64,000 bases of DNA from an uncultured Acidimicrobiales bacterium (GTDB taxonomy: Bacteria; Actinomycetota; Acidimicrobiia; Acidimicrobiales; Bin134). Shown here in pieces: positions 58,759-64,000 of this stretch (positions are counted from its first letter, which is position 1; each line of letters begins with the position of its first letter). The notes beneath the pieces are model-generated. The model was not told the origin of the DNA and ran no database searches. It worked only from the letters and a program-made list of their open reading frames with translations. The stretch spans positions 2,854,475 through 2,918,474 of the forward strand of contig OX638344.1 of the NCBI GenBank assembly GCA_951813555.1, written 5' to 3'. Both the position numbers and the translations under genes were made by a program.

Positions 58759-59013
58759 ATGACACGAGACGAAAAGCGGTTGGAGAGAATCCGGAACAAC
58801 CCGGGCGATGTCTCGTGGGCTGACCTGGTCGCGGTTTGCGACCTATGCTTTGGCAAGCCGCGGCGACGTAGGGGCAGCCACCTGATCTATGACACTCCGT
58901 GGATGGATCATCCGTTGCTGGTCCTTCAGCCCCGCAAGGGCAAGGCGAAGCCCTACCAGGTACGCCAGGCGCTGCGGGCGCTCGACGAGATGGAGGAACA
59001 CGATGGCAATTGA
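58759..59013 (+). CDS. hicA: HicA-like type II toxin
   Basis: GSHLIYDTPWMDHPLLVLQPRKGKAKPYQVRQALRAL fits the HicA GSH...P-x-H...lk pattern. It precedes and overlaps the hicB-like gene by 11 nt. Confidence 0.6.
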   Translation: MTRDEKRLERIRNNPGDVSWADLVAVCDLCFGKPRRRRGSHLIYDTPWMDHPLLVLQPRKGKAKPYQVRQALRALDEMEEHDGN

Positions 59014-59236
59014 TCAGTATCGGTTCTGGACTGAGTGGTCTGACGAGGACGGCGAGTGGGTCGGCCTGTGCGACGGCTTCCCCTTGATCAGCTGGCTGGA
59101 GCCGGATCGGGAAGCAGCGGAGTCGGGCATCCGGGCCGTGGTTGCCGAGGCCATCGAACACCTATTGGATCAGGGCAAGCCTCTGCCTGAGCCTGGTGTG
59201 GCATGGCCGCCTCAAGTGGCGGCGCGCCGCCTTTAG
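59003..59236 (+). CDS. hicB: HicB-like antitoxin (UPF0150 fold only, no DNA-binding tail)
   Basis: MAIDQYRFWTEWSDEDGEWVGLCDGFPLISWLEPDREAAESGIRAVVAEAIEHLLDQGKPLPEP. Confidence 0.55.
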   Translation: MAIDQYRFWTEWSDEDGEWVGLCDGFPLISWLEPDREAAESGIRAVVAEAIEHLLDQGKPLPEPGVAWPPQVAARRL

Positions 59237-59314
59237 GCCGATTTGAGGTCTCAAATGGTAACAACACAGACATAACCATGGGACGCAGCGGCTCACCTGC
59301 GGACTGAAGAGGAC

Positions 59315-59539
59315 GTGATTGCGTACCTGGACGCCGCTTTTGCCGAGAGCGATCCAGGGTTGATCGTCGCCGGTCTGAGTGACGTCGCTCGCGCCAAAGG
59401 CAAGACAGAAGTCGCCAAGGATGCGGGGCTCCTTCCCGACGATATGTCAAACAGCAACAACCCCGGCCTCGGGTCCGTGCTCAGGGTGCTTGACGCCCTC
59501 GGCCTACGCCTCCACGACACTCTCGCGTCAAGTACCTGA
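59315..59539 (+). CDS. Solo addiction-module antidote protein (HigA-family HTH), N-terminally short
   Basis: IAYLDAAFAESDPGLIVAGLSDVARAKGKTEVAKDAGL...NPGLGSVLRVLDALGLRL matches the 'probable addiction module antidote' family. The frame is closed by TAA at 59273-59275. There is a GTG start and no cognate killer gene upstream. Confidence 0.6.
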   Translation: MIAYLDAAFAESDPGLIVAGLSDVARAKGKTEVAKDAGLLPDDMSNSNNPGLGSVLRVLDALGLRLHDTLASST

Positions 59540-59571
59540 CTGGTAACAAGGGTGCAGCGTTTCCCATTGAG

Positions 59572-59588
59572 ATGTACGATTCGTACAT
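59572..59588. promoter_or_regulatory. Palindrome ATGTACGA-T-TCGTACAT overlapping the phd start
   Basis: Perfect 8-bp arms at 59572-59579 and 59581-59588. The second arm contains the preferred ATG (59587). Confidence 0.45.
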
Positions 59589-59838
59589 GACAGAAGTGCC
59601 AGTTAGCGAGGCCCGAAACCGGTTGGCCGAAGTGATCGAGGAGGCCCGGCGATCAGGCGAGCCCATCTCGGTAACCCGCCGAGGCCGACGAGTTGCTGTG
59701 ATCTTGGATTCAGACGCCTTCGACCGGCTCGTCGACATCGCTGATGACATCGAGGATCGCCGTGAACTCGCTGCGGCGCGAGCCGACGACGACTATGTGC
59801 CCTGGGATGAGGTCAAGGCTGCACTGGGACTCTGGTGA
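59587..59838 (+). CDS. Phd/YefM family antitoxin
   Basis: MTEVPVSEARNRLAEVIEEARRSGEPISVTRRGRRVAVIL. Confidence 0.85.
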   Translation: MTEVPVSEARNRLAEVIEEARRSGEPISVTRRGRRVAVILDSDAFDRLVDIADDIEDRRELAAARADDDYVPWDEVKAALGLW

Positions 59839-60101
59839 GCCGATACACCGTCGAGATCGCCCGTCGGGCCGTCAAATCGATTGCTGCTCTGCCGCGCAAA
59901 GAACAGCAGCGGATTCGAGCTGCAATAGATCTGCTGGCCGACGAGCCACGGCCCCCTGGCTGCGTTGCGCTCACCGGTGAGCAGTCTGTGTATCGAGTAC
60001 GCGTCGGTAACTATCGAATCTTGTATGAGGTCATCGACACCGGCTTGGTGATTCTGGTGATCCGTGTCGGACATCGCCGTGATGCCTATCGATCCCGCTG
60101 A
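59835..60101 (+). CDS. RelE/ParE family toxin
   Basis: GTGA overlap with phd. YRVRVGNYRILYEVIDTGLVILVIRVGHRRDAY. Confidence 0.85.
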   Translation: MSRYTVEIARRAVKSIAALPRKEQQRIRAAIDLLADEPRPPGCVALTGEQSVYRVRVGNYRILYEVIDTGLVILVIRVGHRRDAYRSR

Positions 60102-60137
60102 GGCAAAATGAATTACCTTGGGACGTTCCTATAGATG

Positions 60138-61253
60138 TCAAGTGCGGGTTGTGAGGGTGGCGAGGTCGGCTCGGAGGGTGCGGTAGAGCTCTCGGGCGAC
60201 GAAGCGTTTGAGGCAGCGGATGGCTTCTTTTTTGGTTTTGCCCTCGGCGACTCTGCGGTTCAGGTAGCTGCGGGTTTGTTCGCAGTAGCGGAGCCGGACG
60301 ATGACGATCATGTGCAGGGCGCGGTTGGCTTCGCGGTTGCCGGCGAAGTTGAGCCGGTGACGTTTGGTGCGTCGTGGCGATGCGGGGACGGGCGCGGCGC
60401 CGCACAGGTGGGCGAAGGACGCCTCGGAGTTGAGCCGGTCGATGTTCTCGCCGGCGGCGACGAGCAGGGCCGCGGTGTAGTGGGTGCCGCATCCGAGGCG
60501 CGACAGGGTTGTGGGCGCTGCGACGGCGACCAGCCGGTCGAGGCGGCGCTCGAGTTCGGCGGCATCGGCGCCGAGTTGGGCGATGCGGCGGCCGAGGCGG
60601 CGCAAAGCGGCTTTGGCGGCCTGGGCGGGATCGGCGAGGAGTCTGGTGTCTGGGCGCAGCCGTGCGCACACCGAGGCCTTGCCCTCGAGGGTGCGACGGC
60701 CGTCGAGCTGCTCGCGCAGCGCGGCGGGTGCAGTGACCAACAGGTCGCCGAGCTGGCACAGCGCAGCCGCCCGGGCCTTGACGGCGCTGCTGCGGGCGAC
60801 GCTGAGCTGGCGGATCGCCTCGACGATCCCGGTGGTGTCTTTGGCGGCAGCGGTCGCTTCGCCCGAGAGCACCTTGCGGGCCGCGGCCTTGGCGTCGATG
60901 GCGTCGTTCTTGCCGCGGCGGGCGCGCAGGTGCCGATGCGGCTGGTTGACCTCGACCACCGCACAGCCCCGCTCCAACAGAGACCGGGTCAAGGCGGCTC
61001 CGTAGGATCCGGTGGACTCGACGCCGACCGCGGCGATCTGGCCGAACGACGCGAGCCACTCATGGGTCGAGCGATAGCCGGCACACCTCGCGGGGAACGA
61101 CTCGGTGCCCAGCACCCGGCCCAATGGGTCGAGCGCGGCGGCGACATGGAAATCGGTGTGGCAGTCGATCCCCGCGATCACCGTTTGGTTCTGATCTGAA
61201 ATGCTGCTGTCCTTCTTCTCGAAGCGGCTGGCGTGCCGGGACGGGACGGACAT
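60138..61253 (-). CDS. IS110 family transposase (DEDD recombinase)
   Basis: VIAGIDCHTDFHVAAALD, VGVESTGSYG, KNDAIDA, and the C-terminal LCGAAPVPASP...GNREANRALHMIV module. Confidence 0.9.
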   Translation of the reverse strand: MSVPSRHASRFEKKDSSISDQNQTVIAGIDCHTDFHVAAALDPLGRVLGTESFPARCAGYRSTHEWLASFGQIAAVGVESTGSYGAALTRSLLERGCAVVEVNQPHRHLRARRGKNDAIDAKAAARKVLSGEATAAAKDTTGIVEAIRQLSVARSSAVKARAAALCQLGDLLVTAPAALREQLDGRRTLEGKASVCARLRPDTRLLADPAQAAKAALRRLGRRIAQLGADAAELERRLDRLVAVAAPTTLSRLGCGTHYTAALLVAAGENIDRLNSEASFAHLCGAAPVPASPRRTKRHRLNFAGNREANRALHMIVIVRLRYCEQTRSYLNRRVAEGKTKKEAIRCLKRFVARELYRTLRADLATLTTRT

Positions 61254-61453
61254 AACAGTGATGAGGCATCTGTCGCACAGGTTCCTATAAGGTCACGTCG
61301 CTCGTCCCGGACCGGCCGCCGTCAGCAACCCCGGAGACGGGCCGCCAACATCGACGAGTCCCAACCAAGGCACCCGCAACGCACGGGGCCAGTTTCACGC
61401 CAACCCAGACGCCGACGGCCCGCCCCGCACACATCTTCACTGTTTCACGCAGG
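61254..61453 (-). ncRNA. Speculative IS110 bridge (guide) RNA region in the 5' non-coding arm
   Basis: About 200 nt of non-coding sequence upstream of the recombinase, the location where IS110-group bridge RNAs have been described. It contains a 9-mer identical to the opposite IS end and a direct repeat gtttcacgc (61392-61400, 61442-61450). I could not verify any fold by hand. Confidence 0.2.
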
Positions 61454-61482
61454 CCCTGGGACCCCCTGGGTTTGGTGGAGGC

Positions 61483-61749
61483 GTGAATGCAGATGTGCGG
61501 CATAAGCAGACGTCGCGGCGGTATTCGCCGGAGCAGAAGGAGCACGCGGTGCGGATGGTGTTCGCGCTGTGTGAGGAGCTGGGCACCTCGGCGGACACGA
61601 TCACGCGTGTGGCTCGCCAACTCGGTTATGGGGTCGAGTCGGTCCACAAGTGGGTTGACCGGGCCAAGATCGACGCTGGGACCTGGGCGGGGCTGACCTC
61701 GGCGGAGAGCGAGGAGCTTAAGCGGTTGCACCAAGAGAACCGTGAGCAT
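61483..61749 (+). pseudogene. IS3-family transposase OrfA (HTH) fragment, 3'-truncated
   Basis: RRYSPEQKEHAVRMV...ITRVARQLGYGVESVHKWVDRAKIDAG...LTSAESEELKRLHQENRE. Similarity ends at about 61747. There is no frameshift site or OrfB, and GC content drops from about 61800. Confidence 0.7.
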
Positions 61750-61838
61750 CGTGCCGTTGGCCACCACAGCACACGGAGAAACTGTCACAGCCGTCGATAC
61801 GGTGGTCTAGGAGTCTGCAATTCTGAAAGGAAAACCAC

Positions 61839-62039
61839 ATGGAGACAATCGAGCGATTTACCTGGGGTGAACTGCTATGCACAATCTTGACCATATGGGG
61901 CGGATGGCTTTGGTTCTTCGCTGTCTTCGGCCTTGTCTTCTACGTCATGGACCTCAACCACATCACAGGACGTTGGAGATACCTGTTTCCACTAAGTATT
62001 GGGCTCGCGATTGTGTTATTGATCTGGATATTGTGTTGA
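61839..62039 (+). CDS. Hypothetical small two-TM membrane protein (low-GC block)
   Basis: aaaggaaaaccac precedes the ATG (SD-like). 66 aa with two hydrophobic helices (LLCTILTIWGGWLWFFAVFGLVFYV; YLFPLSIGLAIVLLIWIL). Confidence 0.5.
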   Translation: METIERFTWGELLCTILTIWGGWLWFFAVFGLVFYVMDLNHITGRWRYLFPLSIGLAIVLLIWILC

Positions 62040-62055
62040 ATTCGATGAGCTAAGC

Positions 62056-63027
62056 TTGTTTGACAGATATGGTATAATTGGAGCCGCAGTACGAGAGAAT
62101 GAATTGCAAGATATGGGTATTCACAAGATACTTAAGCCTCGTAGCCGTGAGGGACGAGTTCGCCTACTCAGCAAGCAAGGTCTGAATCATACTTGGTCAA
62201 TAGCTCAAATTTGGATCAGCGCCTGTGTGCTTATGTATCCTGCCCATAGCGCACGCTATATCTCAAGCGCTCTGGTATTGACTGTGCTGATTTGCTTGCT
62301 GCTGTCCGTTGAGGTCATGCCTTTGATGACTGTACTGGCCACTGTGTACATAGCGATGGAGTTATTTGACAGGTTTGCTCAGTCGCGTCGCAGGAATTTC
62401 GAGGGGAGTAGATTCCACGATGTTGAGAAACTGGACAATTTACAAAGAATCCTTATCTACAAGCGAAAGCAATTCTGGGCACAACGATTGCTTGCATCCT
62501 ATTTGCAAACCGAGCTTGACAGACGAAAATACTTGCAGTTTATGGTAGATGAGGGGCAGTGGGGAAGCCCGCCGTACGAATATGTGCGCATCATGGAATT
62601 CGAAGAGTGGCTAAATACGCGTATACAGGAATTCGGAGACTTCGGTCCCTGTGGGGAAGCGATTATGAACAATGCGCTCACTATTTCGCCTTGGGATCGT
62701 GAAAATACGGTCGATCAAGTGGAAAATGTCGTTGCAGCAGTGGACATGATGGTGGAACTCTGGGAAGGCGTTGCAAAATGGATACTGCGATGCCGTTCCG
62801 TGTGTGTGCATGACAGCGTAGGAGAAATACCTCAGGGCCTATCGGTGCTCGGCATGAGCATGTTCAGCACTCTACGCGATCTGCCTGGTGAGCTAACTTC
62901 TGTGATAGGCGAGATGATTGAAGAGCTAGGACGATATGGCGGTGAATGCAGTGTCACTGTGACTTTTGAGGCTGACGCTGAAGAGTTTTCTGGAGCCATA
63001 CAAGATGTTCTAACAGCGGTTGATTAG
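62056..63027 (+). CDS. Hypothetical membrane-anchored protein, no recognisable domain (low-GC block)
   Basis: Two predicted TM helices near the N-terminus, then a soluble region of about 210 aa. It starts 16 nt after the small TM gene. The start is TTG 62056 or ATG 62113. An extended -10-like TGgTATAAT lies at 62070-62078. Confidence 0.55.
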   Translation: MFDRYGIIGAAVRENELQDMGIHKILKPRSREGRVRLLSKQGLNHTWSIAQIWISACVLMYPAHSARYISSALVLTVLICLLLSVEVMPLMTVLATVYIAMELFDRFAQSRRRNFEGSRFHDVEKLDNLQRILIYKRKQFWAQRLLASYLQTELDRRKYLQFMVDEGQWGSPPYEYVRIMEFEEWLNTRIQEFGDFGPCGEAIMNNALTISPWDRENTVDQVENVVAAVDMMVELWEGVAKWILRCRSVCVHDSVGEIPQGLSVLGMSMFSTLRDLPGELTSVIGEMIEELGRYGGECSVTVTFEADAEEFSGAIQDVLTAVD

Positions 63028-63130
63028 AGGAAGCGATTGCATCTGAAATATGATCTCGGAAGACCATGCGCCACTCTCGTATATTAGTTTCATTAGAGGA
63101 AATATATTTACTGCATTGAAGCTTTACATC

Positions 63131-63259
63131 AAGCTTGGCCACCGTGGCCAGCGACAGGCTCATCTGAGCGGCCACATGGGCCTGAGACTTACCCCCCTGG
63201 ATCCGCTGGATGATCAACAACCACCCCATAGGGGTCAGGCATGCACTAGCGTGCGACAT
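63131..63259 (-). pseudogene. IS481-family transposase N-terminal (HTH) relic
   Basis: MSHASACLTPMGWLLIIQRIQGGKSQAHVAAQMSLSLATVAKL; compare the IS481 consensus start MSHANARLTP-GR-LL. No catalytic domain follows. Confidence 0.55.
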
Positions 63260-63429
63260 CGAGCTTCCCTTGCCAACTGTGAATGATCGCAATCACCACA
63301 CAGGCATCGGAGACTCACCTCATAGCGGAGCTAACAACCTCTGTGGACAGAATAGCTAGGGGCTGGTGGCCACGGGGAATCACTATTCGATCGACATGCG
63401 ATTGTAAATGCCAAGAATACCTTTACTCT

Positions 63430-64000
63430 CTATGGGGCAGTCTCCATCCCAGGAAATTGTTGATTTTCGTAACCGCTGATTTTCTTCTTCGTCCACCGCA
63501 TTAGAGAAATTGCACTTGGATGATCAGTTGCGTGGAACATGTGGTATTGTGGCCTCCCTGTATCCGGGTCCCTGATTGGCTGGGGTATCACATATTGATA
63601 CCCCAGCCCTCGTAGAAGATCTGCGTAACGTTCGACTAGCGCGCCGCTGGGCTTGTCGCTTTCCCACAGATCCCACCAATTGCCTCGCCTTCCGAAGATG
63701 CGATCGAGTGTACTAGCGCTAAGGGTTTCCGGATATCTCGACCGATCATCAGGCCAAAGGCGATAGATTGCTTGGTGGGAGTTGAATAAAATCCAAAGTT
63801 CCACTTTGCAAGCCCTAGGTCTACCATTAGACGTTGGTGGCGGCTCATAGCTCTTCCAATGGGCCAATGCTTCAATAGTATTCCATTCAAGTTGAGTGGA
63901 ATCCTGGTCCAACAGGACGAAGCACGGTCGAGAACAATCCAGGCGAGTCAGCTGGAGCAATTCTGGAATAACCTGGTTGCAGTCCCCCTGGTGCAGCGAG
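63430..64000 (-). CDS. Three-Cys-motif partner protein (TcmP)-like, 5' end beyond the window
   Basis: The frame is open to position 64000 (..SLHQGDCNQVIPELLQLTRLD..). FVLLDQDSTQLEWNTIEALA, KVELWILF, LDRIFG..W and YHMFHATDHPSAISLM match my recollection of the TcmP layout. Confidence 0.55.
   Translation of the reverse strand, partial: SLHQGDCNQVIPELLQLTRLDCSRPCFVLLDQDSTQLEWNTIEALAHWKSYEPPPTSNGRPRACKVELWILFNSHQAIYRLWPDDRSRYPETLSASTLDRIFGRRGNWWDLWESDKPSGALVERYADLLRGLGYQYVIPQPIRDPDTGRPQYHMFHATDHPSAISLMRWTKKKISGYENQQFPGMETAP

Follow-up and report, generated by a model that had tools for sequence, protein, structure and literature searches.

The element described here is very probably an insertion sequence (IS) of the IS110 group that works, or once worked, by means of a bridge RNA and that lies nested in the terminal repeat of an IS3-type element; the copy itself is now most likely immobile. 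It was found near one edge of a stretch of 64,000 nucleotides, which is referred to below as the window. The reading is built on features that are observed directly in the DNA, namely the ends of the element, its nesting, the fold of its non-coding left end, four guide matches, and the covariation of guides and flanks across related copies. A first-pass annotation of the same DNA had proposed that an IS110 element interrupts the left end of an IS3, and this is borne out by the domains of the recombinase, by an IS3-type orfA to the right of the element, and by the termini of about 30 copies.

Further copies with which the ends of the element could be fixed were sought in the window's own genome, and none was found. 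Because the element is single-copy in this 3.8-Mb genome, its termini were taken from relatives. A protein-guided scan of genome contigs yielded about 30 copies, with amino-acid identities of 81-92%, from metagenome-assembled genomes (MAGs) of sponge-associated Acidimicrobiales (Candidatus Poriferisodalis, Poriferisocius and others); one sponge-associated MAG contains at least 11 copies. Of 40 species genomes that were searched in the window's genus, 5 contain the element, each with one or two copies, and two of these are fragments. A search of a plasmid collection returned only distant IS110 relatives (64-70%).

The outer flanks of these approximately 30 copies are mutually unrelated, and the same two termini recur throughout. 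In the orientation of the element, AGTGAAGATGTG opens every copy, directly after a flank that ends in AAC, and CTATAGGAAC closes every copy, followed by GTCCCRGGG, a few bases, and TCA. The left end of the element begins with AGTGAAG and its right end closes with TATAGGAAC, and AAC stands before both junction points in nearly all copies. As is characteristic of the IS110 group, terminal inverted repeats are absent, and a short core at both junctions replaces a long target duplication. This core is a dinucleotide, GT on the plus strand and hence AC in element orientation (Table 1). Upstream of the recombinase gene there are 188 non-coding bases (61254-61441), and 13 bases follow its stop codon.

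These termini revise the extent that the first-pass annotation had given. Its left boundary, 60125, was exact, whereas its right boundary, 61462, lies 21 nt too far, the related copies placing it at 61441. The alignment of copies that it had put forward as a way to fix the ends does reveal termini shared by about 30 relatives, with a right terminus that differs from its own. Likewise, the arm it had described as about 200 nt long is indeed non-coding and upstream of the recombinase, and measures 188 nt. In the longer extent, i.e., 60125-61462, CCYTGGGAC would be a 9-bp target duplication, as the near-identical 9-mers at 60117-60125 and 61454-61462 might suggest. We rejected this possibility, whose probability we consider negligible: homology between copies stops at 61441, a paralogous IS3 end at another place in the window's own genome carries 61444-61486 without a break, and other copies have no such duplication. 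The segment 61444-61462 is accordingly part of the IS3 repeat. The CCYTGGGAC pair, which had been taken for junction repeats, is instead a motif internal to the IS3 repeat.

Table 1. Coordinates in the window of the IS110-family element, its predicted RNA and guides, its recombinase gene, and the surrounding IS3 remnant.
Feature	Position	Strand	Basis or remark
IS110-family element	60125..61441	minus	1317 bp including one copy of the core dinucleotide; termini common to about 30 related copies
Second core copy (AC in element orientation)	61442..61443	minus	left junction; first copy is 60125-60126
IS3 left inverted repeat tip, TGAATTACCTTGGGAC	60109..60124	plus	matches tips beside other copies; cut from the remainder of the repeat by the IS110 insertion
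Rest of IS3 left repeat, leader and orfA remnant (start 61483)	61444..61751	plus	HTH_Tnp_1; weak IS3 NCBIfam match
Left end coding for the predicted bridge RNA	61249..61441	minus	consensus fold and pair counts, 33 arms; last stem overlaps start codon 61251-61253
First stem-loop (target-binding loop), composed of an outer stem, an internal loop and an inner hairpin	61339..61421	minus	helix 1: 9/17 pairs changed on both sides; 92% of cells paired
Last stem-loop (donor-binding loop)	61249..61299	minus	helices 6-8
Left target guide, GCGUGAAAC	61392..61400	minus	same sequence as 61442-61450 (core and 7 nt of flank), 9/9
Right target guide, UUGGGAC	61358..61364	minus	complementary to right flank GTCCCAA (60118-60124), 7/7 Watson-Crick
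Left donor guide, UAUAGGAAC	61281..61289	minus	same sequence as the final 9 nt at the right end (60125-60133), 9/9
Right donor guide, UCACUGU	61255..61261	minus	complementary to core plus first 5 nt of left end, 7/7
Recombinase gene, 371 aa, open frame	60138..61253	minus	Pfam, NCBIfam; D30, E79, D117, D120; IS621/ISCro4 chain alignment, alignment A2
Pro293-Arg294 codons	60372..60377	minus	family has catalytic Ser-Gly here; PASPR in the window copy versus PASSG

To the left of the element lies a Phd/YefM-ParE/RelE pair, whose ParE/RelE-type toxin gene ends at 60101, and to its right an IS3-type orfA (HTH_Tnp_1) starts at 61483. Beside about 25 other copies, the downstream flank carries on its opposite strand TGA(A/T)TC...GGGAC, i.e., the tip of an IS3-type terminal repeat. 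On account of these tips we place that of the window's IS3 at 60109, so that it begins 7 nt past the stop of the toxin gene and the IS110 element sits 16 nt inside the left inverted repeat. The first-pass annotation had this repeat start at TGAGG, on the relE stop, which is 9 nt off; its reconstructed leader of 43 nt also gives way to a joined leader of 57 nt. The hosts of the sibling copies are IS3 elements with a full orfA (HTH_Tnp_1) and orfB (HTH_21 plus rve), and their genes point away from the tip where the left repeat was entered and towards the tip where it was the right. Thus, we conclude that this IS110 family homes to IS3 terminal repeats. Its usual insertion point is 16 nt from the IS3 tip; in one sibling (L037) the insertion lies at a similar motif 45 nt inside.

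The IS3 element in the window has been reduced to a stump. Its blastn similarity to the IS3 copies of relatives spans 61509-61751 only; the repeat and about 90 orfA codons are left, and orfB and the right end are missing. Past about 61751 the GC content drops from about 65% to 47%, and an unrelated low-GC block starts there. The IS3 host is a relic, as is, most likely, this IS110 copy. The low-GC block that stands in place of the IS3 body (61751-64000, 46-51%) contains an ORF of 323 aa (62056-63027) with no Pfam or NCBIfam match, and a TcmP-type gene (63430-63999, TIGR04474) that is cut by the window edge.

The window's own genome was searched for the exact empty target site, which was not found. 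The best look-alike, at 1565649, has 3 mismatches and adjoins a metallophosphoesterase gene rather than an IS3 body. This unoccupied, IS3-repeat-like site (about 1565649-1565675; locus L125:1750-1776) agrees with the left guide at 8 of 9 positions and needs two G-U pairs in its right half; it is located directly upstream of the metallophosphoesterase gene, and an IS3 orfA/orfB lies about 0.9 kb away.

Short stretches that resemble the first bases of the IS110 left end (22-47 nt, 90-97% identical), with no recombinase attached, occur at 1945638-1945780 and 1947153-1947290 of the window's own genome (locus L120:839-977 and 2354-2491) as well as in relatives (L023, L025, L026, L027, L029). Several of them adjoin an IS3-repeat-like flank, and in the window's own genome they occupy the leaders of two genes that are tandem duplicates; such stretches could be scars left by insertions since lost. 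Given such short look-alikes at many loci, the last 36-47 nt of the arm were also considered as target DNA, and this was rejected because distant relatives begin likewise. In a contig of Frankia sp. AiPs1 (L071:1226-1330) the first 51 nt of the left end are tandemly duplicated, and the first duplicate stops exactly at the DNA coding for the left target guide, as if it were a half-target for a second insertion.

The structure of the non-coding arm was derived from an alignment (A1) of 33 left ends, comprising 27 close copies and 6 from relatives in Kribbella, Frankia and Streptomyces. The consensus fold consists of a long first stem-loop, with a large internal loop and a hairpin cap, a small middle hairpin, and a last stem-loop of the same design as the first. 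That is, the left end would specify a non-coding RNA with two internal loops flanked by stems, which is the arrangement expected of the IS110 group. Across the 33 arms, standard pairs make up 92.6% of cells, and 15 pairs have changes on both sides. None of 500 column shuffles reached the observed pairing values, and when partners were slid by 1-3 columns pairing fell to 33-46%. The fold of the arm as a single sequence is no more stable than those of its shuffles (z = -0.56), and the case for the structure therefore rests on covariation, not on energy.

Several details of this fold may be noted. Its last stem (GACGUGAC with GUUAUGUC) contains the start codon of the recombinase, and no Shine-Dalgarno sequence is visible there (61249-61261). 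Each of the two loops is closed by stem pairs of AC with GU, letters that are also those of the core. After the right target guide comes UC (61355-61357), which does not pair with the AC core, and the right donor guide runs into GU.

According to the published rule for bridge RNAs, each loop's 5' side pairs with the bottom strand over 8-9 nt and the 3' side pairs with the top strand (PMC11208160); a 5' guide therefore reads like the top strand. The window copy fits this rule four times, once per guide (Table 1). As in the IS110 group, the guides of the first loop match the target flanks, by identity on the 5' side and by complementarity on the 3' side, and those of the second loop match the joined ends, i.e., the donor. 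The chance of such a match in shuffled arms is 0.0003 for the left target guide, 0.017 for the right target guide, 0.00004 for the left donor guide, and 0.006 for the right donor guide. The left donor guide is identical to the core together with the final 7 nt of the right end. Within the 64 kb of the window its 9-mer, GTTCCTATA, is present at two places and no more, namely 60125-60133 and 61281-61289, for a chance expectation of 0.07, and two matches were seen in 0 of 100 shuffles.

Much of what the first-pass annotation had surmised about the arm is supported by these results. Its suggestion that the arm may be a bridge RNA is upheld by the covarying stems, the two internal loops and the four guide matches; the fold that it had envisaged, with two internal loops whose guides match the ends and the target, was found, and the arm is conserved in structure, with the paired changes and shuffles described above. 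The 9-mer it had singled out as a guide-to-donor match is the left donor guide. The ccytgggac flank, which it had named as the target, forms the target's right half and complements a guide of the first loop.

Whether the guides track their flanks can be read from the 25 distinct guide/flank pairs among the related copies, in which the left target guide occurs in 13 versions and the flank in 18. On average, guide and flank are identical at 4.48 of 6 variable positions, as opposed to 2.66 with shuffled flanks, and none of 20000 flank shuffles reached the observed identity. In most pairs 8 or 9 of the 9 positions agree. Mismatches of the left target guide cluster at positions 4 and 6, where 14 and 15 of the 25 pairs match, versus 19-25 at the other positions; several of the mismatches are complementary flips, e.g., T against A or G against C (A1 columns 44-52). 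The right target guide of most other copies is CCUGGGAC, paired with GTCCCAGG; that of the window has UU in its place, and pairs with the window's own AA. On the donor side, GGAAC has become GGAGC in the distant relatives in Kribbella, Frankia and Streptomyces, both in the guide and, in step with it, in the right end. The columns of the right donor guide are invariant in 33 of 33 arms. Such tracking is predicted by a bridge RNA, and not by a protein-binding repeat or a plain leader.

The arm could nonetheless be thought of as a mere untranslated leader, or as a protein-binding end, with the 9-mer as a subterminal repeat to which the recombinase binds and not an RNA guide. An Rfam scan of 59000-64000, with E-values up to 10, gave two chance hits and none on the arm, and a scan of the integrated copy for promoters of the sigma-70 type found no convincing one, as one might expect of such an arm. 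In the joined right and left ends there is a perfect -35 hexamer, TTGACA, which lies 11 nt from the right end and overlaps the stop codon of the recombinase, but there is no acceptable -10 (the best candidates match at 2 of 6 positions). The same two negative results, i.e., no such promoter in the integrated state and no Rfam family on the arm, are also points against a bridge RNA, as are the right target guide, which, unlike its IS621 counterpart, stops short of the core, and the left target guide, with its frequent mismatches at positions 4 and 6. However, a leader or a protein-binding end offers no account of the 9-nt segment of the first loop that changes with the flank outside the element in 25 distinct pairs, nor of the compensatory changes in the stems, and we deem it highly improbable. 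The arm is thus best explained as the coding region of a bridge RNA.

The recombinase matches PF01548 (DEDD_Tnp_IS110, 1.4e-23), PF02371 (1.3e-09), and NCBIfam NF033542, 'IS110 family RNA-guided transposase', with a score of 141.3 against a cutoff of 140. D30, E79, D117 and D120 are invariant in the family alignment (A2) and are aligned with the DEDD residues of IS621. In a profile search of solved structures, the PASSG motif of the family aligns with ESG of IS621 (S241-G242). Mutation of S241 abolishes recombination by IS621, and G242 holds the loop (PMC11208158). In the window copy both the catalytic serine and the glycine are absent, a loss that the first-pass annotation had not remarked on, and its membership of the family is one of descent. 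Ser-Gly is found in every other close copy that can be read at the motif (about 30) and in nearly all more distant relatives, with the exception of two copies in which the same codons carry the same Pro-Arg change, one in a congeneric genome (L008) and the other being the second copy of another genome (L058). Based on the analogy with the S241 mutant, we conclude that the window copy most likely cannot move by itself, despite its open frame and intact RNA. The open frame, together with a dN/dS of about 0.3-0.4 relative to siblings, would allow for some residual function of the recombinase; live and dead copies are not told apart by this ratio.

A single clade (support 100/99) unites the three Pro-Arg copies, whose terminal branches are long (0.04-0.06); the sister of this clade is a Ser-Gly copy. 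Both sisters of the window copy are broken, one by a frameshift and the other by a 52-bp deletion. Their flanks are not homologous to those of the window copy, so that the clade occupies three sites in three species; synteny among the three copies was looked for and was not found. The same change at three non-homologous sites suggests that the lineage moved after the change had occurred.

One way in which it could have moved is under its own power, i.e., the window copy would still be autonomously active, with Ser292, which is kept in PASPR, or some other residue as the nucleophile. The recombinase has an open frame of 371 aa and intact DEDD residues, the four guides are intact and match perfectly, and the distribution of the clade over three sites could be the product of such activity. 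However, the serine that precedes the glycine is conserved from this family to IS621, where its mutation abolishes activity; moreover, both sister copies are decaying, each genome has one copy of the clade, and the terminal branches are long. We therefore regard autonomous activity as unlikely.

Alternatively, the Pro-Arg lineage, whose ends and bridge RNA are intact, may have spread as a non-autonomous passenger, for which the recombinase came in trans from a Ser-Gly sibling that shared the cell. This fits with the Ser-Gly sister copy, which resides in the same genome as one of the Pro-Arg copies, with the non-homologous flanks of the Pro-Arg copies, and with the guides of the window copy, which suit the site that it occupies, the UU:AA pair included. 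The same pattern could however result from gene conversion among copies or from flanks that were rearranged later, and the window's genome today has no close Ser-Gly sibling, the nearest being 49% identical. Mobilisation in trans is accordingly a tentative proposal. It is possible, with similar reserve, that the Pro-Arg clade reached its three non-homologous IS3 ends after the change, either as trans-mobilised passengers or, less likely, with Ser292 as the nucleophile. For the copy in the window, immobility on its own remains our preferred reading.

Three other genes for IS110-family recombinases are present in the window's own genome, outside the window. One of them (2752477-2753508) is the gene with 49% identity, and its Ser-Gly motif is intact. 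The other two (2711977-2713047 and 2714894-2715964) are an inverted pair with 33% identity and equal scores, about 1.8 kb apart.

From these observations, and from homology with IS621, we propose the following mechanism. The 188-nt left end would encode an RNA with two internal loops, whose transcription, like the formation of a circular intermediate and the chemistry of strand exchange, is proposed by analogy with IS621. The first loop would read the terminal inverted repeat of an IS3-family element, its left half by identity, i.e., by pairing with the bottom strand, and its right half by complementarity. The second loop would read the joined right and left ends of the element itself, which would constitute the donor, and the RNA would thereby bridge the donor and the IS3 repeat. 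A tetramer of the recombinase would then cut after the AC core through a phosphoserine intermediate, exchange the top strands, and resolve the junction. The predicted product, flank-AC-left end ... right end-AC-flank, is that observed. As to the order of events in the window, the IS3 element would have landed 7 nt downstream of the parE/relE-type toxin gene before the IS110 element entered 16 nt inside its left repeat, and the truncation of the IS3 element probably came after that insertion. In its present state, the copy would be a well-preserved fossil.

The mechanism of bridge RNAs was itself described in 2024, and the window copy is an ordinary and probably dead example of it. It is a clean natural case of targeting by a bridge RNA, from an uncultured, sponge-associated actinobacterial lineage, and the element can now be annotated with exact ends. 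The related copies point to one IS110 family specialised on IS3 terminal repeats, in which the right target guide is fixed on the conserved tip of the repeat, and the left target guide, now diversified, exists in at least 13 versions, which track different IS3 subfamilies; this would be natural reprogramming of the kind exploited in genome engineering. Orthologues that combine an AC core with a long right target guide, of 7-8 nt, could be drawn from this family. The loss of the catalytic serine, shared by a small clade, is a modest lead on trans-mobilisation.

The targeting of the ends of other mobile elements is already known in the wider IS110 family. IS4321 and IS5075 insert in the terminal repeats of Tn21-family transposons.

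Among characterised systems, the closest comparison is with IS621 of E. coli and with ISCro4, of the IS110 group (Durrant et al. 2024, PMC11208160; Hiraizumi et al. 2024, PMC11208158). The window element shares with them the DEDD RuvC-like and Tnp domains, an RNA that is specified by the left end, upstream of the recombinase gene, and in which the target loop precedes the donor loop, 5' guides of 9 nt that correspond to a left half plus the 2-nt core, 3' guides that complement the right halves, and the lack of terminal inverted repeats. The similarity of the proteins is remote (profile E-value of about 1e-20). The core is AC, versus CT in IS621; the right target guide has 7-8 nt and leaves the core uncovered, whereas that of IS621 has 4 nt and extends over the core; and a terminal repeat of IS3, instead of a REP-type sequence, is targeted. 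Unlike in IS621, the last stem of the RNA overlaps the start codon, and the window copy lacks the catalytic Ser-Gly.

The IS1111 group, with its 3' seekRNA (Siddiquee et al. 2024, PMC11187229), has in common with the window element the recombinase superfamily and an RNA-guided choice of site inside the terminal repeat of another mobile element. In that group, however, the RNA is located downstream of the gene and there are subterminal inverted repeats, whereas the RNA of the window element is upstream and such repeats are lacking. Lastly, ISPpu9 and ISPpu10 of Pseudomonas putida (bioRxiv 10.1101/2025.01.17.633520, 10.64898/2026.03.19.712850) likewise belong to the IS110 family and home to a repeated sequence of the host under the guidance of an RNA; as described there, their targets are REP or intergenic repeats of the host, whereas the window element targets the ends of another IS.
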